Shown: piece after piece, positions 15,353-26,238 of the stretch
How the letters are laid out: each line of letters opens with the position of its first letter
Position numbering within the stretch: position 1 is the first letter of the stretch
Source: Candidatus Fraserbacteria bacterium
Lineage (GTDB): Bacteria; Bipolaricaulota; Bipolaricaulia; RBG-16-55-9
NCBI GenBank assembly: GCA_037442925.1
Contig: JBBIPG010000031.1
Span: 1 to 27,630, forward strand
DNA: 27,630 bases
Direction of reading: 5' to 3'
Position numbers and translations under genes: made by a program
The notes under the pieces: generated by a model
The model's input: only the letters and a program-made list of their open reading frames with translations
What the model was told of the DNA's origin: nothing
Database searches by the model: none

Positions 15353-16597
15353 TTACCAGGGCGCGGCTGTCGTGCGTCGCTTCTCCTTCAGTTTGCTCAG
15401 CACCAAGCGGTGTCCGCCAAGGTCCCAAAGATAGCGGTTGGCAATCAGGCCCTTCAGCGTCCGCGCTGCCCAACCCGAAAAGCGCAACTGGATGAATCTC
15501 GTGAGGTTCAAAACTCCTAGCGCATCCTTGCGGCCCAAGCTCAAGAATGTCCCCAGTCGCTTTGGGCAGAAGGGCTCCGGCTTATGTCCCGCTATCTCAC
15601 GACACAAGTTCTTCGCGGCAAGATATCCTTGTTGTACGGCAATCTGGGCTGTGGGTGGCAAAGGGCGGCCTAGCTCATCTATGGCCAAGGAGCAGTCTCC
15701 GACGATGTAGACGTTGGGTTGTTCACGAGCTTGCAGGAATTCATTGACGTAGGCCCGCCCCTGCTTGTTAATCGCAAACCTGCTCTCCTCCACCAGGTGA
15801 TGGCCGCGTACGCCGCCGGCCCAAAGGATCACTCCCGCTTCTAGCCGCTGGCCACTTCCAAGCACCACACAATGAGGCTCCACGCAGGCGATGCGAGCTC
15901 CCGTGATCAATTCAACGCCCTTGCGCTTAAGGGTCTTGGTAGCTTGCTCGATCAACAGCGAGTCAAAACCTGCGAGGATCGTCTCCGATCCCTCTACCAC
16001 GGTGATGCGGATCTCCTGCGGGTCTACATCAAAGGCCTTCGCCAAGCGTGGTCGCCAGTCGGCTATCTCGCCGGCCAGCTGAACCCCCGTGAACCCTCCG
16101 CCGCCGATGACGAGATGAGTGCACCAATGCTCCTTGGGATTTTCATCGTAGGCGGCCATCGCCATCACGATGCGGCTGTGGATCAGCTGCGCACTGCTGA
16201 GATCTCGTAACACGAGCGCATGCTCTGGCAACCCTGGGATATCATAGAACTGAGGCTCCCAGCCTAGTGCCAAAATCAAGTAGTCATAGGCCAGAGTCCT
16301 CGTGCCCCCGCGAGTCTTCACCTTGACCCGCTGGTCTTGAGGATCGATGGTCTGAGCCATACCGCGTAGGAACTCGATCTGAGGGGCCAGCAGCCCAGGC
16401 AGATAGACCGAGACTTCTTCATAGCCGGTATGCCAGACAGCCGGATGATGCAAGATCGTGGTCAAGTAATGATAGTTGTATTTGTTCACGAGGGTGATTT
16501 GAGCTTTTCTTAGAGCCGTCATCTGGCGCAGATGGACGGCGGCTGTGACCCCGGCGTATCCGCCACCAAGGATGAGGATCTTGGGGTTCTTGAGCAT
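15353..16597 (-). CDS. Type II NADH dehydrogenase family FAD oxidoreductase
   Basis: LGGGYAG, GGGGFTGVQLAGE, WAGG, GD and PPTAQIAVQQG. Confidence 0.9.
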   Translation of the reverse strand: MLKNPKILILGGGYAGVTAAVHLRQMTALRKAQITLVNKYNYHYLTTILHHPAVWHTGYEEVSVYLPGLLAPQIEFLRGMAQTIDPQDQRVKVKTRGGTRTLAYDYLILALGWEPQFYDIPGLPEHALVLRDLSSAQLIHSRIVMAMAAYDENPKEHWCTHLVIGGGGFTGVQLAGEIADWRPRLAKAFDVDPQEIRITVVEGSETILAGFDSLLIEQATKTLKRKGVELITGARIACVEPHCVVLGSGQRLEAGVILWAGGVRGHHLVEESRFAINKQGRAYVNEFLQAREQPNVYIVGDCSLAIDELGRPLPPTAQIAVQQGYLAAKNLCREIAGHKPEPFCPKRLGTFLSLGRKDALGVLNLTRFIQLRFSGWAARTLKGLIANRYLWDLGGHRLVLSKLKEKRRTTAAPW

Positions 16598-16694
16598 CGT
16601 TGGTTCTCGCTCCTGTCATGTTTCGAGTGCTAGTTCATAGTTCACAATCTCGGTTGAAATCGGCCTACACCTGCTATTATAATCATCACCTAGT

Positions 16695-16745
16695 GGGGGA
16701 CAGCCCCCGGCGGAAGCTGATGTCCGCCAGGGGCTGTAAGGTGAT
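16695..16745 (-). repeat. Conserved leader hairpin, copy B
   Basis: 15-bp stem ACAGCCCCTGGCGGA/TCCGCCGGGGGCTGT on the minus strand; similar to 7451-7499. Confidence 0.65.
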
Positions 16746-16779
16746 GAGGGGTAGGGGTGAAGCTAGGAGGCCTGCTTAT

Positions 16780-16813
16780 ATTATAGCGCGTGGCGCATCT
16801 CCAAGTCTGTAGG
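16780..16813 (-). promoter_or_regulatory. Operator half-site (CCTACA, 16813-16808) 22 bp upstream of -10 TATAAT (16785-16780)
   Basis: Same spacing as the full copies, but only the promoter-proximal half is conserved. Confidence 0.5.
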
Positions 16814-16815
16814 AA

Positions 16816-17253
16816 TCAACTGGAAGCGCTGGACAAGGAGCCCTGCTGAGGCGTGCCGTAGATGGCTCCGACGACTGCGCCGTAGATCAGATGCCCCATC
16901 AGACTGCCCATCACCAGAAGGAAGGCATTGGGGGCATTCGAGGTGAAGAGCCCCATGCCCATCATCGGCATGATAACCACTTGGGCGACAACGAAGGGAA
17001 ACAGGCCATAGAGAGCGCCTTTCAGCCATGGCGTCCCCGGCAGCCAACTCACGAAACCGTAGGCGTAGAACAAGGCTAAGATCATTCCAATCATGAAGTG
17101 AGCTAGCCATCCAATCAGAATGGAAGCGCCCATGAAACTGCTGAGCATAGCCGGGATATCCATGGGCAACCCCATAACCCCGGCCATCATGGTCAATAGA
17201 GTCATCACGATCGTCCCGATCAATCCTGCCAGAATCGCTTTACCCGCATTCAT
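16816..17253 (-). CDS. Met/Gly-rich 4-TM membrane protein, paralog of 10344-10748
   Basis: Start MNAGKAIL with SD AAGGAG; GWLAH, KGALYG and GSLMGHLIYG. Confidence 0.8.
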   Translation of the reverse strand: MNAGKAILAGLIGTIVMTLLTMMAGVMGLPMDIPAMLSSFMGASILIGWLAHFMIGMILALFYAYGFVSWLPGTPWLKGALYGLFPFVVAQVVIMPMMGMGLFTSNAPNAFLLVMGSLMGHLIYGAVVGAIYGTPQQGSLSSASS

Positions 17254-17285
17254 AGAACTCCTTTCTCTCGTTCCTCCCGTCGTCG

Positions 17286-17639
17286 CTAAAGTGTGATCAG
17301 CGTGTAGCCTTCTTGGACGAGCTTGGCCACGCTGGGATGACCGCCGTACTCGGCGTGGAATGGGATACCGGCCTGGGCAATCTCGTTCTTGACTTGAAAC
17401 GCCTGTGCGCAATAATCACAAGCCCCCCCAATCAAGCCTGATTTCTTGACCTCTTGATAGAGCTTGTGATACTTGTGGTCGGGCTTTTCGAACTCCCGGA
17501 CCCATGTCGTGCCTGCCCCGTCGAAGATCAGCCGGACCTGATGACCAGCCTCTTTAAGATCCTTGGAGTAGAGAAGCCCATGGACCGCCCGGCCCATGTC
17601 CCCCGGCTGTGCGTGCAAAATGACTGCGAATTTCGCCAT
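17286..17639 (-). CDS. DsrE-like protein, paralog of 11641-12006
   Basis: LIFDGAGT, GACDYCA and GHPSV; SD GGGAGG. Confidence 0.8.
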   Translation of the reverse strand: MAKFAVILHAQPGDMGRAVHGLLYSKDLKEAGHQVRLIFDGAGTTWVREFEKPDHKYHKLYQEVKKSGLIGGACDYCAQAFQVKNEIAQAGIPFHAEYGGHPSVAKLVQEGYTLITL

Positions 17640-17684
17640 CGTGCCCCTCCCTTTCGACATTCATTAGTTGAGTTGAGTAGACGA

Positions 17685-17727
17685 ATCGTACTTCACCTTG
17701 AACCCTAAGACTGTAAGTGTGCTTACA
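17685..17727 (-). promoter_or_regulatory. Operator copy 6 (17712-17727) with -10 TACGAT (17690-17685)
   Basis: TGTAAGTGTGCTTACA, 21-bp gap on the minus strand. Confidence 0.78.
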
Positions 17728-17748
17728 AAGCCTGAAAGACTTTGAGGT

Positions 17749-17777
17749 TTGACAAGGGCCCTACTCTCATGCATAAT
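17749..17777 (+). promoter_or_regulatory. Sigma70 promoter TTGACA-N17-CATAAT for aroF-tyrA
   Basis: Near-consensus hexamers with a 17-bp spacer. Confidence 0.8.
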
Positions 17778-17806
17778 GGGCCCACTCTTCAGATGAGGTG
17801 ATGATA

Positions 17807-17935
17807 ATGCTCAAAGGTGATCGGCTTTGGCTGCAACAGGCAGTCACAGCTTGCAGGACGGCAGTTCTCTCCTCTTTCCACCTCCTCTCCTCTCGCTTCC
17901 CCTGGCGAGTTTGCCGCTACCCCTATAGCGCCTGA
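17807..17935 (+). CDS. 0-frame leader ORF of aroF (42 aa, MLKGDRLWL...)
   Basis: SD GAGGTG at 17795-17800, ATG 17807, stop TGA 17933-17935; codons 7-8 are CTT TGG. Confidence 0.7.
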
Positions 17936-18812
17936 GGCGCTTCCAACCAAGTCCAATTCCGCACCTGCTTCACTGGAAACTCAGAGTAGCGAACAGTTTA
18001 GACTAGCCAGCCGTCGGTCCCGTCCGCAGGACACGATTGTTGATGTGAAGGGCGTGAAAATCGGCGGCGAGGAGCTGGTGATCATGGCCGGGCCGTGCTC
18101 CGTGGAGAACGAGTACCAGATCCATACGATTGCGCAGCTGGTGGCCGAAGCAGGAGCCCGAATCCTGAGGGGTGGCGCTTTTAAGCCCCGCACGTCACCG
18201 TACAGCTTCCAAGGCTTGGGCCAAGAGGGGTTGAAACTGCTACGAACTGCTGCGGATGAGAACGATCTGCTGGTCATCACAGAGGTCTTAGATGTCCGCC
18301 AGATCGATCTGGTCGCCCAGTATGCCGACATCCTGCAGATTGGTGCGCGCAACATGCAGAACTTCGCACTGCTCAAAGAAGTGGGACTTACCCATCATGC
18401 TGTGCTCCTCAAACGAGGGATGGCTGCTACGGTGAACGAGCTTCTGATGGCTGCAGAATACGTGTTGTCCGCAGGGAACTCGCGAGTGATCCTCTGCGAA
18501 CGGGGGATCCGAACCTTCACGGACTACACACGCTTCACGTTGGATGTCGCAGCCGTTCCCGTTGTGAAGAGGCTCTCGCATCTACCCATCATTATCGATC
18601 CCAGCCACCCCGCAGGGCGACATGAGAACGTCATTCCGTTAGCACTGGCCGGGATTGCTGCCGGCGCAGACGGGTTGATCGTCGAAGTCCATCACAATCC
18701 CGAATGTGCTTTGAGCGATGGCCCTCAGGCGCTTCGACCCGAACAGTTCAGGCAACTCGTCGGAAAAGTTTCCGCCATGGCAGCCGTCTTGGGTAAGAAG
18801 TTTCTCGCGTAA
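17807..18812 (+). CDS. aroF: DAHP synthase type I-beta; predicted 334 aa via a +1 frameshift at 17825-17830 (ORF track start GTG 17817)
   Basis: [37 protein letters not shown] and DPSH. GTG 17817 has no properly spaced SD, and the next in-frame GTG lies inside the core. Confidence 0.9.
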
Positions 18813-18817
18813 ATGCT

Positions 18818-19720
18818 ATGGCTCGACCACGCACGCCTAGAAGAGTTACGATCGTAGGTGTGGGTCTGATGGGCGGCTCTCTGGGCATGGCCATCCGGCG
18901 ATGCTGCAAGGGCGTCGAAGTGATCGGCGTCGATCGGGAAGAAGCGACTCTCCAGCAGGCCCAAGAGCGCGGGGCCATCGATTGGGGTACACTGGATCTC
19001 GAGCAGGGCGTGGCCGAGGCGAATCTGGTCTTCTTGGCTACACCGATTCGGGTTATTTTGGAACTCTTGCCCGCTCTAGCAGATGGTATCGCGGAGAAAG
19101 CGATCGTCTCCGATCTGGGTTCGACAAAACTGCAAATCTGCCTTGCCGCAAAGAAGCTACTGCCCGAAAACTTCGTGGGCGGACATCCGATGACCGGCTC
19201 CGAGCGTCAAGGCATCGAAGCAGCGGACCCTTTCTTGTTCGAGAACGCGGTCTATCTCCTCACTCCGCTACGCCCTGGCGATGATAAGGCTGAGAGACTC
19301 GCGGCCTTTTTGGAGCAACTGGGGTGTTCGATAGTCTGCATAAGCCCGCAGCGGCATGATCGCTTGGTAGCCCACGTCAGCCATCTACCACAGCTTTTGG
19401 CAGTGGCTCTGGCAGACTTCATTGGGGAAAGGGCCGAAGCCGACAGCCTATACAAAGAATTGGCTGCCGGAGGCTTGCGAGACATGACCCGCATTGCGGC
19501 CTCGCCCTATGAGATCTGGCAGGACATTCTGATCACAAACCGGGATGAGATCGAGCAAGCCATGCAGGCATTGTTGTCACGGCTGCAAGACAGGTGTTGC
19601 ATCAGAGAAGAAGACGCTTGGCGCGAGAGGTTCGCGCGGGCAGCGCGCTTTCGCGCCGCGTTTCCTCGGCAATCGAAGAGCTTGGTTGACGCGTCCCACA
19701 CCGAGGGATATAATCAGTGA
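18818..19720 (+). CDS. tyrA: Prephenate/arogenate dehydrogenase
   Basis: VGVGLMGGS, SDLGSTK, GGHPMTGSE, HD...VSHLP and RDMTRIA. Confidence 0.93.
   Translation: MARPRTPRRVTIVGVGLMGGSLGMAIRRCCKGVEVIGVDREEATLQQAQERGAIDWGTLDLEQGVAEANLVFLATPIRVILELLPALADGIAEKAIVSDLGSTKLQICLAAKKLLPENFVGGHPMTGSERQGIEAADPFLFENAVYLLTPLRPGDDKAERLAAFLEQLGCSIVCISPQRHDRLVAHVSHLPQLLAVALADFIGERAEADSLYKELAAGGLRDMTRIAASPYEIWQDILITNRDEIEQAMQALLSRLQDRCCIREEDAWRERFARAARFRAAFPRQSKSLVDASHTEGYNQ
19686..19714 (+). promoter_or_regulatory. Sigma70 promoter TTGACG-N17-TATAAT inside the tyrA 3' end, driving the trp operon
   Basis: Hexamers at 19686-19691 and 19709-19714. Confidence 0.8.
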
Positions 19721-19748
19721 ACTCGTACACACCGGAGGGTGATTCAAC

Positions 19749-19817
19749 ATGAGAAGATTCTCAAGAAGACTCTCAAAGGGTGAGTATCTTTGGCTCTCCT
19801 CGTTCCGTTGTATCTAG
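19749..19817 (+). CDS. 0-frame leader ORF of trpE (22 aa, MRRFSRRLSKGEYLWLSSFRCI)
   Basis: SD GGAGGGT at 19734-19740, ATG 19749, TAG 19815-19817; codons 14-15 are CTT TGG. Confidence 0.7.
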   Translation: MRRFSRRLSKGEYLWLSSFRCI

Positions 19818-21256
19818 GCACAACCCCGCCTCAGGCCGTCCTTCCTCCCGTCGTGATGTGCCCATAGCTCGTTCCAAAAGCCATCTCATCATACGAGAGA
19901 TCCCCGCTGTGGAGCCCTTTGCGCTCTATCGCCGCTTGCGGAATCGTACTGGAGTCAGCTTTCTCTTAGAGAGTGCTCCGGGACCAAAACGCTTGGCACA
20001 GTTCACCTTCATCGGGTTTGACCCTGTGAGGGTCTTTGCTCTACAGGATGGAGTGCTGTTCGTCGACGGGAAGCGCAGAGACAGGCTTTGGTCGTCCGGT
20101 CAATTTCCTACGAGACACGCTTGCACAGCATCAGCCTTTCACTAGGGCAGAAGTCCCTTTTCTTAGCAGATTCAGCGGTGGCCTCGTTGGCTACTTTAGC
20201 TATGACTTCGTACACCATCTAGAGAGGCTGCCGGAGCCTACTCCACCACGCTCCTCCTTTCCGGACTTCGAGCTGGGCCTCTATCTCGATGGCATCGTCT
20301 ATGATCATCACCGCCATCGCGCCCATTATTTTTCTCACAGTGAGGATCGATCCCACGTTGTGATGGAAGCTCTAGCTGATCCCACTCCCTCTCCGGCCCG
20401 TCTTCGCGTCGATCGCTTTGAGTCCGACATAACTCAGCAAGAGTTCTGCGCGAGTGTCGCGCACGCCAAAGCGCACATCCAGTCCGGTGATATCTATCAA
20501 GTTGTGCTCTCCAAACAGCTAACGGCACCCTATGACGGCGACCTGCTCTTGTTTTATGAGCTGCTCCGTCGGATCAACCCATCACCCTATATGTTCCATT
20601 TGGATTTCGGCCCGCGCGTGATCTCCGGCAGTAGCCCAGAGATGCTCGTCTCCGTCCAAGGGAATCTCATCACGACCTATCCCATTGCGGGGACGCGCCC
20701 ACTCGGACGGAACGCCAAAGAGCGGAAGCGCTATGCTCGCGAACTCTTGAGGGACGAAAAAGAGCGTGCGGAACACGCGATGCTGGTCGATCTGGCCAGA
20801 AATGACATCGGGCGCGTGGCAGAATACGGCAGTGTACGTGTGCCCGAATACATGCGGGTGGAGTCTTTCAGCCATGTTCAGCATCTGGTCTCTCGCGTTG
20901 ACGGGTGCTTGCGAGCAGGTCTGGACGCCATCGATGCGTTGGCTGCGCTCTTCCCTGCAGGAACGGTGACAGGAGCACCCAAACCGCGTGCCATGGAGAT
21001 CGTCAACAATCTGGAACGGAGTCCCCGGGGCCCCTACGCCGGTGCTGTGGGCTATCTGTCGCTCAACGGCCATCTGGACACAGCCATCACGATTCGTACG
21101 CTCTTTGCAGATGCTCACGCCCAAAGACTCTTCCTGCGCGCCGGTGCCGGCATCGTCTGCGATTCCGTTCCGAAAAGAGAGTGGGAGGAAACCGAACGCA
21201 AACTCGAAGCCATGAAAGTCGCCCTAAAGGGAGCTGCCTCATGCGCGTTCTCGTGA
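19749..21256 (+). CDS. trpE: Anthranilate synthase component I in three successive +1 frames (predicted 501 aa with shifts at 19788-19793 and 20086-20091)
   Basis: FLLESAPG..FTFIGFDP lies in ORF 19780-20145. FSGGLVGYFSYD, GDIYQVVLS, NPSPY, SSPE, PIAGT, EHAMLVDLARND and PAGTVTGAPK lie in ORF 20036-21256. Confidence 0.88.
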
Positions 21257-21831
21257 TCGACAACTACGACTCATTCACCTACAACCTGGTGCAATACTTC
21301 GGGGAGCTGGGCTGCCAACTACGCGTCTTTCGAAACGATGAGCGAGACCTTGAGGAGATCAAAGCCCTCAAGCCCGAGCGGATCGTACTGTCCCCCGGAC
21401 CCGGCAACCCGCAAAACGATCGGGATTTCGGCATCTGCTCCTCCATTCTACGGGAGATCTCCCCATGCATTCCTACGCTGGGGGTGTGCCTGGGACATCA
21501 GGGAATTGCGGCGGTCTTCGGGGGACGGGTGATTCAGGCAAAGACGATTCGGCATGGCAAGACTTCGCGTATCTACCATGACGGCCAAGGGATCTTCCAA
21601 GGGGTCCCCAACGGCTTCTTGGCAGCGCGTTACCACTCGCTGGCAATCGATCGTGCCTCGCTGCCATCGGTTTTGGAAATCAGCGCCGAATCCGAAGACG
21701 GCGAGATCATGGGAGTGAGGCATAAAGACTATCCCATTGAAGGAGTGCAGTTTCACCCCGAATCGATTCTGACCGAGCACGGGAAGGCGATTCTGGCAAA
21801 TCTTCTGACGCACGGAGGTAGCGGGTCATGA
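21241..21831 (+). CDS. trpG: Anthranilate synthase component II (glutamine amidotransferase)
   Basis: IDNYDSFTYNL, SPGPG, GVCLGHQ and QFHPES; start overlaps the trpE end. Confidence 0.95.
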   Translation: MRVLVIDNYDSFTYNLVQYFGELGCQLRVFRNDERDLEEIKALKPERIVLSPGPGNPQNDRDFGICSSILREISPCIPTLGVCLGHQGIAAVFGGRVIQAKTIRHGKTSRIYHDGQGIFQGVPNGFLAARYHSLAIDRASLPSVLEISAESEDGEIMGVRHKDYPIEGVQFHPESILTEHGKAILANLLTHGGSGS

Positions 21832-22868
21832 TGCAGGAAGCACTCGCCTTGCTGGCAGAAGGACAGGATCTCAGTGCTGAGATCACAAGAGGAGCCATGA
21901 CGGAGTTGATGAGCGGCTGCTGCAGCGAGGCACAAGTGGGTGCTTTCCTGATGGGGCTGCGCATCAAGGGCACGACCGTCGAGGAGGCCATCTCCTTTGC
22001 CGAGACGTTGCGAAGCCTGTGCCTGAGAATCAGACCCCGCTTGAAAGGGGATGCGCTACTCACAGATGTGTGTGGCACCGGCGGCGCACCCGTAAAGACG
22101 TTTAACGTCTCGACCGTGAGCGCCTTTGTGGTAGCCGGAGCCGGTGTGCCCGTCGCCAAGCACGGCAACCGTGGCGTGACAAGCCCGTGCGGCAGCGCCG
22201 ATGTCCTGGAGGCTCTGGGGGGCAATTTGAACGTCTCACCCCAAGCGGTGGAACGAAGCATTGAAGAGATCGGAATCGGCTTCCTGTTCGCTCCCAATTT
22301 TCACCCGGCGCTGAAGTATGTGGCCAAGAGCCGCAAGGAACTGGGCATCCGCACGGTCTTCAACATGCTGGGGCCGTTGGTCAATCCGGCGGACCCTCAA
22401 GCTCAGCTCCTCGGGGTCTTCTCACAGGAGCTGGTGGGGATGTTCCCTAAAGTCCTGCGGGCTTTGGGCGTCCAGCGCGCCTTGGTGGTCTACGGTCTCG
22501 ACGGCGTGGATGAGGTCTCGATCCTGGGCAAGACGCTCATCGCAGAACTCAAAGATGGGACCATCCGGCACTACGAGCTCAATGCCCAAAGCCTGGGCTT
22601 TCGGCTCGCTAAGCCGGAAGAGATCGAGAGTCTTCCTGCGGCGCAGAGCGCGGAAGTCACAAGACAAATACTATCAGGGAAGCTGCGAGATGCCCGCTAT
22701 GAAATGGTGCTACTGAACGCCGGGGCGGCCATCTACGTGAGTGGGAAAGCGGCATCGCTCGAAGAGGGCATCGCGCAAGCAGAGGAGAGCATCAAAAGCG
22801 GCAGTGCCTTAGAGAAACTGAGGCTCCTCGTGCAATCACACCATGGATCAGTTGGACCGGATCATTGA
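21828..22868 (+). CDS. trpD: Anthranilate phosphoribosyltransferase
   Basis: DVCGTGG, FNVST, AKHGNR and RTVFNMLGPL. Confidence 0.96.
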   Translation: MMQEALALLAEGQDLSAEITRGAMTELMSGCCSEAQVGAFLMGLRIKGTTVEEAISFAETLRSLCLRIRPRLKGDALLTDVCGTGGAPVKTFNVSTVSAFVVAGAGVPVAKHGNRGVTSPCGSADVLEALGGNLNVSPQAVERSIEEIGIGFLFAPNFHPALKYVAKSRKELGIRTVFNMLGPLVNPADPQAQLLGVFSQELVGMFPKVLRALGVQRALVVYGLDGVDEVSILGKTLIAELKDGTIRHYELNAQSLGFRLAKPEEIESLPAAQSAEVTRQILSGKLRDARYEMVLLNAGAAIYVSGKAASLEEGIAQAEESIKSGSALEKLRLLVQSHHGSVGPDH

Positions 22869-23616
22869 GTCTGTTCGGGCCACCCTTCGAAGTGGGTATT
22901 ACCGGACAGAGAAGTTCCTGCGGGTGGAGCGCAAGTCATTTGTGGAGAGCATTCGCACCTGCTCGGCCACCCCCATTGTTGCGGAGATTAAGCCGGCTTC
23001 CCCCTCTCTGTCTCGGGGTCGGCTGCTTTCACCAAAGAGGATCGATGAGATCGTGGGCGTATTTGCCGAGGCCGGAGTCGTGGGCATATCAGTCCTGACC
23101 GAGCCGGTGCACTTCCGTGGGTCTTTAGAGAATTTACGATCAGCCAGCGCGAGCGGACTCCCCACGCTGATGAAGGATTTCGTGATCGATCCGGTTCAGC
23201 TAGAGGCGTGTGCGGCGTATGGGGGTAGCGCTGTCCTGCTCATAGTGAGTCTCTTCCGACGCGGCTACAGCACAGTGAATCTACCCGAAATGATCGCTCT
23301 TGCCCACAAGAAGAATCTAGAAGTAGTACTCGAAGTCAACTCGCTTAAAGAGTTCCAACTGGCAAAGAAGACGAAAACGGACATGATCGGCATCAACAAT
23401 CGCAATCTGGGCACACTCCAAGTCAACTTGGAGACGACCCCCCGCATCCTGCATCGGGTCAAAAAAGACCGCATCGTGTGGAGCATGAGCGGGATTGAGA
23501 GCCCCCAAGACCTTCGCCGACTCAAACAGGCCGGAGCCGATGCGTTCTTAATCGGGACTTCCTTGATGCAGGCTCCGGATCTGGTAGGCAGATTAACTGA
23601 GCTGCTAGAGGCGTAA
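22843..23616 (+). CDS. trpC: Indole-3-glycerol phosphate synthase
   Basis: AEIKPASPS, SVLTEP..F.G, LMKDF and GINNRNL. Confidence 0.94.
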   Translation: MDQLDRIIESVRATLRSGYYRTEKFLRVERKSFVESIRTCSATPIVAEIKPASPSLSRGRLLSPKRIDEIVGVFAEAGVVGISVLTEPVHFRGSLENLRSASASGLPTLMKDFVIDPVQLEACAAYGGSAVLLIVSLFRRGYSTVNLPEMIALAHKKNLEVVLEVNSLKEFQLAKKTKTDMIGINNRNLGTLQVNLETTPRILHRVKKDRIVWSMSGIESPQDLRRLKQAGADAFLIGTSLMQAPDLVGRLTELLEA

Positions 23617-23635
23617 TTTCGAGGAGGACATCACG

Positions 23636-24301
23636 ATGTGTAAAGTCAAACTGTGCGGCAATCGCAGCTTGCAGGACGTTGAGATCACACGGAATGCCGA
23701 CGCGCAGGGCTTTGTGGTGGAGACGCCCCGATCACCGCGAAATATCCCCCTGAGCATAGCGCAAGTGTTAATACAAGCCGTGCCACTCTTCAATACGTCT
23801 GTCGTAGTGACGGCCATCAGAGAACCTCAAAAGCTGGCTGATGTTGTCTCTAAGACGCAACCTGATGCACTTCAGATCCATAGCGAATTGGAGCCTGACC
23901 AGATCGAGCGTATTCACGAGGTGCTCCCAGCTCACGTCAAGCTATACAGCCTGCTCAGTGTGCTGGGTCCGCAAGAGGACTTGATCGAGAAAGCCAAAGC
24001 ACTGGCCAGCATCTCTCTGGATGCGATCATTCTAGACACAAACATCGGCGGTCAAAGCGGTGGCACCGGCGTGCCACATGACTGGCAGCTCAGTCGGGTG
24101 ATCCGCGATGCGATCTACCCGTTTCCCGTGATTCTCGCCGGTGGACTTACTCCCGGCAATGTCGCAGAGGCCATAGAGATCGTCAGGCCCTATGCGATCG
24201 ATGTAGCCAGCGGTGTGGAAGAGGCTGGTGCGAAGTCGCCTCGCCTTGTGCAAACCTTGCTCCGTCAAGTGAGGAACTATGCAGAACCACGAGTGGAGTA
24301 A
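23636..24301 (+). CDS. trpF: Phosphoribosylanthranilate isomerase
   Basis: [25 protein letters not shown] and DVASGVE. Confidence 0.94.
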
Positions 24302-25448
24302 GCTGGGGAGAGATGGAAGATTTGCGCAGTTTGGTGGCCGCTTCGTGCCCGAGATTCTCCGGTCGGCTCTCGTGGAGTTGGAGAGGGCATATCAAGAAGC
24401 CAAACAAGACGACGTCTTTCACAGGCAACTGCGCTGGTATCAAGAGCACTATGGCGGAAGGCCATCGCCGCTCTACCATGCCAAGCGGTTGACGTCCCAT
24501 GTGGGAGGGGCTCAGATATTCATTAAGCGAGAGGATCTCATTCACGGTGGTGCGCATAAGTTCAACAACGTGATGGGGCAGGCGCTGCTCGCCCGGCGCA
24601 TGGGGAAGCAGCGGATCATCGCAGAGACGGGTGCAGGGCAACACGGCGTGGCAACGGCTATGGCCGGGGCGGTGCTGGGCATCCCTGTTGAAGTTTATAT
24701 GGGCAGAGTTGACGTGGAGCGTCAAAAGATGAACGTCTTTCGCATGAAGCTTATGGGAGCTCTCGTGCACGAAGTGACGAGCGGCAGCGCCACATTAAAA
24801 GACGCGATCAACGAAGCACTGCGAGATTGGGCCACCAATGTGCCCACGACGTATTATCTCTTGGGCTCCGTGGTCGGACCGCACCCGTATCCTGTGATGG
24901 TGCGCGACTTTCAGCGTGTGATCGGCGATGAGATCAAGGGCCAGTTGCTACGAGAGACTAAGAGACTCCCCGATCTACTCGTCGCGTGTGTGGGCGGCGG
25001 CAGCAACGCGATGGGCACCTTTTACCCCTTCGTTCAGCACAAAGATGTGGAGCTTCTGGGGGTGGAGGCAAAGGGGGCAGCGTCGCTGGTGAGCGGTCGC
25101 CCCGGCGTGCTCCACGGTGCCAAGACGTATGTATTGCAAGATGAGTGCGGGCAGATCCAAGAGACTCACAGCATTGCTGCCGGACTCGATTATCCCGCTG
25201 TCGGCCCCGAACACGCACTCCTTAAGGATCTCAAACGAGTAGAATACATCGCCGTAGGAGACGATGAAGCTCTAGAAGGTTTTCGATTGCTTGCCAAGCT
25301 AGAGGGCATCATCTCGGCACTGGAGCCGGCGCATGCGGTGTGGGCTGCCGTGCAGCGTGCCAAGAAGTTGCGTGCCGATCAGATTGTCGTAGTCACGTTG
25401 TCCGGCCGCGGGGATAAAGACTTAGAGACGGTGATGCGCTATGAGTAG
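24279..25448 (+). CDS. trpB: Tryptophan synthase beta subunit
   Basis: [32 protein letters not shown] and SIAAGLDYP. Confidence 0.97.
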
Positions 25449-26238
25449 AATCGCACAACGCTTTCATGATCTATCGGCTGAAGAAGAAGGTGCTTTGATT
25501 TGCTATCTCATGGCCGGGGACCCTGACACGTATAAGACGCTCGACTACGCGTTCGCTCTGGAAGAGGGGGGTGCAGATGTAATCGAGCTGGGAATTCCCT
25601 TTTCTGATCCGGTAGCGGACGGCCCCACCATCCAAGCAGCGGGAGTGCGTGCGTTACAAGCCGGCACGACGCCCCAACGAGTCTTTGAACTCTCTTCGCG
25701 GCTGCGCAAGCGCTCCAACATTCCCATTGTGCTTATGACCTATTACAATCCCATCTTCGTGATGGGCGAAGAGACATTTATCAAAGCCTCCAAAGACGCG
25801 GGTGCAGACGGGGTGATTGTGCCGGATCTGCCGATGGAAGAGTCGAGACACTTTATCGAAGCCGCCCGCCGGCATGGCATCGACACGATCTTCTTCGCTA
25901 CGCCGGAGACCGACGACGTGCGAGTGGGGCAGATTGCTGCTGCCACAACGGGTTTTCTATATATCGTGGCACGATATGGCATCACCGGAGCTAAGGAAGA
26001 GTTAGCAGACTTGACCACCACCCTCATTCAGAGGGTCCATCCTCTGGTTGTGCCGCTGAATCTGCCCATCGCCGTGGGCTTCGGGCTGTCGAACCCGGAA
26101 CAGATCAAAGGCGTTATAGGCGCAGGGGCCAACGGAGCGATTGTAGGCAGTGCCATCGTCGAGAGAATTGCCAGCGGCATCTCCTTGGAGGTTCTCGCGG
26201 GGTTTGTTCGAGAGCTCAAGCAGGGCACAAAGCTCTAG
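25441..26238 (+). CDS. trpA: Tryptophan synthase alpha subunit
   Basis: [27 protein letters not shown] and GAIVGSA. Confidence 0.97.

Follow-up and report, generated by a model that had tools for sequence, protein, structure and literature searches.

Two CUU UGG sites in series in trpE of a Bipolaricaulota lineage as probable programmed +1 frameshifts

How can a trpE gene whose reading frame is broken twice yield its enzyme at the head of an operon that is otherwise intact? The window, i.e., the whole 27,630-nt stretch analyzed here (Candidatus Fraserbacteria bacterium, assembly GCA_037442925.1, contig JBBIPG010000031.1), carries aroF and tyrA followed by trpE, G, D, C, F, B, and A, and all features below lie on its + strand. 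The genes from trpG to trpA (21241..26238) had been called intact in the first-pass annotation, and each of trpG, D, C, F, B, and A is indeed one open frame, without in-frame CTT TGG. trpE comes in pieces: the ORF at 19780-20145 resembles the TrpE N-terminus (a weak match), and the ORF at 20036-21256 resembles the remainder, the end of trpE overlapping the start of trpG (21241) by 16 nt. This trpE is the sole TrpE/PabB homolog in the genome of the window (G000), a 94% complete assembly.

Putative sigma70-like promoters precede the trpE leader (19686..19714, leaving a 5′ UTR of about 30 nt) and the aroF leader (17749..17777), with 11/12 consensus matches each; both are called by consensus match only, and 4 such sites were found vs. 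1.0 expected in shuffles. A Shine-Dalgarno (SD) sequence complementary to the 3′ end of the genome's own 16S (19734..19743) stands before ATG 19749, which opens a leader ORF of 22 codons with one Trp codon (19749..19817), the product of ribosomes unshifted at a first site (site 1). If CTTT is counted as a single Leu step, translation from this ATG yields an uninterrupted protein of 501 aa (P0001) that contains exactly two of these steps, at L14 and L113. The first leads into the TrpE N-terminal segment (19792..20088, 99 codons, with an LLES motif), and the second, at an internal site (site 2), into the C-terminal segment (20090..21256, 388 codons), which is the catalytic part. P0001 matches positions 1-448 of 449 of TIGR01820 with 460.6 bits, under the cut-off of 512; TrpE models score above PabB models for it, and its gene heads trpGDCFBA. 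It also aligns with PDB 1QDL and 5KCK through the internal junction, with short gaps there in both, and a single-sequence AlphaFold model of the two-shift protein reached a pLDDT of 36, on which no conclusion rests.

Judged from its sequence, a full TrpE starting at ATG 19749 thus appears only after two +1 steps, and both sites prove to be conserved. The reading that we favor, and hold to be probable, is that decoding of trpE involves two serial, programmed +1 frameshifts of the ribosome, each of them at CUU UGG. Two serial Trp-dependent shifts had been proposed at the outset; the serial part of that proposal stands, since the internal break lies in series with a conserved leader site and two +1 steps are needed for full TrpE, while Trp dependence and steepness of the response are what we infer from this arrangement.

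Site 1 (19779..19793) reads GGT GAG TAT CTT TGG, comprising an SD-like hexamer, a 3-nt spacer, a slippery CTT T, and the Trp codon, and it makes a +1 step into the trpE frame with a pairing to the anti-SD of -8.5 kcal/mol. A search of 184 genomes of the phylum gave 44 with a match, and the 30 best trpE loci were surveyed for the leader. The strict motif (SD-like, NTT TGG) is found in 26 of the 30 Bipolaricaulota loci, always +1 to trpE, and three more carry an AGT GAT variant, so that 29/30 have the cassette overall, all in +1, and one has none. Named relatives are Bipolaricaulota (Acetothermia, Fraserbacteria), and the motif is absent from seven weaker matches in other phyla. The leader cassette thus occurs across almost the whole phylum Bipolaricaulota, which is a result of independent interest. 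The leaders place 7 to 14 or more codons before W, and the distance from ATG to a downstream GTG varies widely. Many leader cassettes have GTT rather than CTT at the P site, and the cassette-less trpE (L126 / L009, G035) sits directly after a trpB2-like gene. A second full-length trpB lies outside the operon in G000 (C47 13704-14846) and in G006 (C7 22422-23546), a genome from the same family but another genus, without an upstream cassette. The nearest TrpE proteins outside the phylum (P0079-P0097) are labelled Thermoplasmatota and Micrarchaeota, a likeness that raises the question of exchange of gene and cassette with archaea.

The cassette resembles the shift site of the release factor gene prfB. 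The prfB site of G000 is GGG GAT CGC CTT TGA, nearly the aroF leader site, and GA(T/G) CG(C/T) CTT TGA is present in prfB of 28/28 genomes of the order with a prfB match. In terms of its letters, the trp cassette is the local prfB site with UGG for UGA, and it may have descended from prfB, going by likeness only. The tetrapeptide DRLW, said to be shared by site 2 and the aroF leader, is encoded by that leader (ATG 17807) at 17816-17830, as claimed; it is better read as a prfB-type D-R-L-stop with Trp for the stop than as a peptide signal, because the leader peptides vary (GDRLW, GGRLW, GEYLW, GECLW, GGHVW, GDRVW). Twelve of the 28 prfB sites pair weakly with the anti-SD (-4.9 to -5.7); these have no G-rich SD, and the inner GAUC portion of the anti-SD is all that they could pair with, in a register different from that of E. 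coli prfB. In G000, GGTG(A/G) peaks 11 nt before start codons (29/881 starts), and in the cassettes it lies 9 nt before the P-site codon, a distance that becomes 10 nt once the ribosome has shifted +1, so that slipping would move the ribosome toward the preferred 11-nt spacing. Between cassette and enzyme domain the window has Ser/Pro-rich, poorly conserved linkers of 25-50 codons (19794-19870, 17831-17984), and the relatives are alike in this.

Other known means of control were also sought. Neither G000 (94% complete) nor G006 (88%) yielded a TrpR, TRAP, or T-box, and there was no Rfam match in 16500-22000. The trpE leader holds no terminator-like site; one + strand match lies at 20020-20034, and the count of such sites is at chance level (2 vs. 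2.6).

The aroF gene offers a comparison within the window. Its leader ORF (17807..17935) has a single cassette, GGT GAT CGG CTT TGG at 17816-17830, that is +1 into aroF and pairs with the anti-SD at -13.3 kcal/mol. The contrast drawn in the first-pass annotation, a two-site trpE against a one-site aroF, applies to this genome but not elsewhere: the cassette is found in 1/24 aroF-like loci, the window's own, and G006 has site 2 without the aroF cassette. That trpE responds more steeply than aroF is plausible for this genome, but it is not why site 2 was kept. In G006, a short ORF with many Phe, Tyr, and Trp codons (L170 ~17330-17500, - strand) precedes aroF and looks like an attenuator-type leader peptide, though trpE there would use frameshift gates. 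A second aroF of the genome (G000 C53) has an N-terminal regulatory domain that the cassette-bearing aroF lacks. When the genome was scanned for Trp-codon cassettes only the aroF and trpE leaders passed, and a generic slippery-codon scan kept 7/997 sites with these two leaders among them; a purL candidate was rejected for having its own ATG, and candidates on C36 and C43 are shadows of ordinary ORFs. An exact copy of the aroF cassette 15-mer at G000 C2 15608-15622 (-) has no long +1 frame after it and is probably chance or a relic.

Site 2 (20077..20091) reads AGA GAC AGG CTT TGG and has no clear SD. The first-pass annotation described its frame switch accurately: frame 0 runs to VDGKRRDRLW and the +1 frame continues as GRPVNFLRDTL...FSGGLVGY, with CTT TGG at 20086-20091, the frame-0 stop TAG at 20143-20145, and no GGTGA in the preceding codons AGA GAC AGG. 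When shift 2 fails, an off-frame tail is read (20089..20145; Trp, 17 codons, and TAG), which from the sequence would close a 131-aa dead-end product.

Conservation of this break was followed at the level of both DNA and protein. A public contig (run X1, depth 18) matches the window over 19112-21400 with neither a difference nor a gap, but X1 may be the window's source sample and was excluded as independent evidence, and X2-X4 have no coverage of the site. Among 41 related genomes, of which 16 have a match, the short open frame is common only to G006, which carries GAC CGG CTT TGG at the matching place and then the identical +1 switch. G000 and G006 have diverged almost to saturation at synonymous sites (pS 0.67 and 0.72), with a dN/dS of 0.17 upstream of the break (71 codons) and 0.10 downstream. 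Furthermore, six protein fragments (P0002-P0006 and P0313, with P0006 and P0313 in one 90% cluster) break at the same column, the fragment ends being RRDRLW, RQDKLW, RLDRLW, EGGRLW, QWDHLW, and PWDRLW, each with an off-frame tail of 3 to 27 residues after it. L-W is kept by 8/8 break-bearers (seven aligned rows plus P0313) while the flanking residues vary, at 50-78% alignment identity to the window fragment; the eight are kin, so not independent draws, and DNA was read for two of them (the window genome and G006), the other six being protein records, with P0002 on a 767-nt contig. The off-frame tails fit G-x-P-L-D/E in the +1 frame, and the long tail of P0313 is compatible in +1 with a TrpE-like helix, which in both cases is compatibility and not proof; tail length and off-frame sequence are unconserved among the relatives.

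Among 138 short proteins checked, the pattern was fitted only by five fragments and one unrelated match, and in a HMMER search of 1.84 billion representatives the best 150 of 911 matches contained those five and none new. The nearest longer proteins, P0058 (85%) and P0065 (82%), are C-terminal fragments that start 7 residues upstream of the break; among the matches listed (120 of 255), intact proteins reach at most 62% identity over the C-terminal part, and no one-base deletion restoring the frame was seen in the break-bearing group. In a tree built on 62 columns, with one row misplaced (P0065, which is without the domain), a branch with support 78/93 (not starred) separates the eight break-bearers from the rest, and 0/500 label shuffles were as clustered. 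A metagenome scan with a 20-letter site-2 pattern gave 81 matches, which are chance, TrpE being encoded at none of the 80 listed, and a single-protein scan of genome contigs gave no match.

The claim that the junction lies at CTT TGG also holds as the best placement, although an alignment with orthologs carries it only part of the way. The +1 step leaves 8 residues in the loop between D/N-G and P, as in 11/21 intact orthologs (7 residues in 2/21), but the loop is variable and the alignment alone cannot fix the junction, being compatible with a -2 shift or a junction further upstream. Against the former, it is +1 that matches the commonest loop length; against the latter, the +1 frame of G006 holds a stop 7 codons upstream of the site and is open only thereafter, which confines the junction to these 7 codons or later. 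What singles out the hexamer is that L-W is constant in frame 0. As a mere shadow of an F-G pair in +1, L-W would be expected in 432/1546 cases (28%) per draw, so that with perhaps four independent lineages the chance of such an origin is about 0.6-2%, even granting a constraint on F-G that intact orthologs lack (neither L-W nor F-G occurs in the loop of any of the 21). CTT makes up 13% of the Leu codons of the genome, and both DNA-known copies of site 2 use it. Transcriptional slippage at site 2 was rejected, there being no run longer than TTT.

How slippery would site 2 be? CUU_U is in frame with the upstream coding sequence at both sites in G000 and G006. An SD-like stimulator with its end 3 nt upstream of the shift codon is present at site 1 and at the aroF site and absent from site 2. 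Its anti-SD pairing (-2.9 kcal/mol in G000, -3.2 in G006) equals the background of 173 CTT TGG pairs in the genome's long ORFs (median about -3.1); all 28 prfB sites (-4.9 to -13.1) and the 27 leader sites that were scored (-8.4 to -16.6) pair more strongly. At such a background level, site 2 probably falls well short of the leader site in strength. G000 ORFs do not avoid CTT TGG (114 seen vs. 98 expected), so the hexamer alone is probably not very shifty. TTT TGG and ATT TGG are under-represented in the long ORFs of the same genome (36 vs. 88 and 47 vs. 98 expected). A two-sequence consensus fold supported no downstream stimulatory structure, and nucleotide identity at site 2 is unexceptional, with 155/1454 windows as high. 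D or G stands three codons before W in 8/8 break-bearers, with E-G-G or W-D in three, residues that hint at SD remnants. In sum, shifting at site 2 is likely to be inefficient except under a shortage of Trp or with the help of an unseen stimulator.

This weakness gives the main rival its force. Site 2 may be a corrective +1 shift of fixed rate, in which an old insertion is tolerated through a low, constant slip on CUU U without Trp sensing, the level of TrpE is capped, and UGG is kept merely as a slowly read codon that starts with U; we regard this as unlikely, though worth keeping in view. Corrective frameshifting is described as a class in PMC5009743, site 2 is without an SD stimulator, and at least 33 other genomes of the phylum use the leader site alone. 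However, other U-starting codons would preserve the slip (UGC and UGU, or UAN, UCN, and UUN with changes of the +1 residue), and TGC or TGT would partly keep the Gly-compatible +1 frame, yet Trp is found in 8/8 cases in a gene for Trp synthesis; moreover, a simple one-base deletion would restore the frame, and the group shows none.

It is distinctly less credible that each message has a single gate, with TrpE starting at GTG 19780 in the +1 frame, site 1 acting as a start or coupling device, and site 2 as the sole frameshift. A GTG in that frame is present in 29/29 cassette-bearing loci and gene callers begin there (P0059-P0076), but the strong SD precedes the upstream ATG, which is itself in frame with NTT TGG, and neither the variable distance between ATG and GTG nor a motif geometry equal to the prfB shift site of the order suits a start device. 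A ribosome stalled on the Trp codon would, furthermore, cover the GTG and give the wrong sign of control.

We give little credence to a split gene, whose N-terminal fragment and C-terminal part would be made separately, the C-terminal one from an internal start, before reassembling. The window does have an in-frame ATG 13 codons before site 2, and the gene calls for P0058, P0065, and P0314 start at an ATG 7 codons upstream of it; these positions, however, differ between genomes, and in G006 the +1 stop 7 codons upstream is followed by no ATG, GTG, or TTG in that frame until 39 codons past the site, beyond the conserved GGLVGY motif. The frame-0 tails of 3 to 27 residues are unconserved, and an invariant L-W would be left unexplained. 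Slighter still are the prospects of site 2 being mainly a polarity control, in which the stop at 20145 bares 1.1 kb of mRNA to Rho and uncouples trpG, so that expression of the downstream genes is set rather more than the level of TrpE: rho is present in G000 and G006, trpE overlaps trpG, and the downstream genes have no cassette of their own, but failure at site 1 would already expose the mRNA, and this role is compatible with two gates rather than exclusive of them. Finally, a sequencing or assembly error or a pseudogene is very unlikely and refuted in practice, as had been maintained from the start: the genome is metagenome-assembled, the sole spanning contig may come from the source sample, and a congener (G001, 80% complete) gave no trpE match, but the same bases are broken in another genus with purifying selection on both sides, six more fragments end in L-W at the same column, the operon is intact, and the assembly has no other TrpE.

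In the reading with two serial shifts, the peptidyl-tRNA-Leu at each site would leave CUU for the overlapping UUU while the A site awaits Trp-tRNA, a pause logic like that of prfB, where the A site awaits RF2 at UGA. With Trp plentiful, most ribosomes would decode UGG and end after 22 codons at site 1 or 131 at site 2; when charged tRNA-Trp runs low, ribosomes would wait longer at each UGG. TrpE output would be p1 x p2, and far from saturation its fold change would be the product of the two, giving lower basal expression and a wider range of induction. Site 1 would be the SD-stimulated cassette ancestral to the phylum, whereas site 2 would have a single origin in one sub-lineage, when a loop of TrpE that tolerates indels gained one base net, a change that was then retained. 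With little help from an SD, site 2 is probably the weaker and rate-limiting gate, and its failure may also reduce expression of trpG-trpA by lost coupling or Rho polarity. Putting these steps together, we lean, if only slightly, toward a scenario in which a prfB frameshift was turned into an amino acid sensor, a second and SD-poor copy arose within the TrpE fold of one Bipolaricaulota lineage, and the ribosome computes roughly the square of the tRNA-Trp shortage. If true, serial recoding would here act as a natural gate that makes a metabolic switch sharper and needs neither a regulator protein nor an RNA structure. The internal site would also provide a natural comparison of one site with two within one phylum, making the steepness of serial recoding directly testable, and it would indicate that a frameshift can persist within a core enzyme without an obvious SD stimulator. 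Since annotation pipelines split or truncate such genes, Trp prototrophy and its control may be misread in these uncultured bacteria.

Several known systems can be set beside trpE. According to PMC5009743 and PMC2377451, +1 shifting in prfB depends on three elements, namely a slippery CUU_U, an A-site codon that is read slowly, and an SD-like stimulator; PMC5009743 also states that CUU_U is by far the most efficient +1 site among 32 tested and that hungry A-site codons promote +1 shifts. Both trpE sites share with prfB (RF2) the CUU U site, the +1 direction, an essential product in the new frame, and presumably the feedback through a slow A-site codon, and site 1 only shares the SD-like hexamer 3 nt upstream. 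A conserved product is required in the +1 frame, as the C-terminal dN/dS of 0.10 and the assembly's only TrpE indicate. The differences are that the A-site codon is UGG, so that the sensed factor would be Trp-tRNA and not RF2, that the target is a biosynthetic enzyme, and that two serial sites stand 99 codons apart, the second without a clear SD. The trpE sites would therefore work like prfB without being members of it, given their UGG codon, their place in trpE, and the genome's own prfB with UGA.

The attenuator trpL of E. coli reads the supply of Trp-tRNA before trpE by means of a short leader ORF with Trp codons. trpE of the window likewise has a short leader ORF with a Trp codon, but the leaders shown have one Trp codon at the motif and no tandem ones, neither a leader terminator nor an Rfam match is found here, leader and trpE are fused into one polypeptide by the change of frame, and site 2 lies within the enzyme. 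There are also laboratory constructs: Sipley and Goldman reportedly showed in 1993 that CUU UGG, engineered into the RF2 context, gives measurable shifting in E. coli that changes with the supply of charged tRNA, and CUU UGG reporters of these authors and of Gao et al. (1995) reportedly respond to Trp supply, but less so under severe starvation. Such a drop in shifting would limit a steep response from two gates. These reporters bear the full prfB SD and a single site, while trpE is natural and has two.

More than one frameshift per protein, as in trpE, is known from the double -1 shifts of retroviral gag-pro-pol, from Euplotes, and from mitochondrial genes (PMC5009743), whereas the passage concerned describes no nutrient sensing and the trpE shifts occur at the codon of the pathway's end product. 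Full-text literature searched, mostly outside subscription papers, yielded no natural Trp-sensing frameshift in trp genes, and the main text and 2 of three supplements of PMC3711429 do not mention anthranilate, tryptophan, or trp. The 2016 review PMC5009743 knows of no trans-frame proteins with a starvation-specific function from hungry-codon shifting; a conserved trpE gated by Trp codons would be such a case, and, if true, it would stand as a fourth mode of trp control beside repression, attenuation, and T-box/TRAP.
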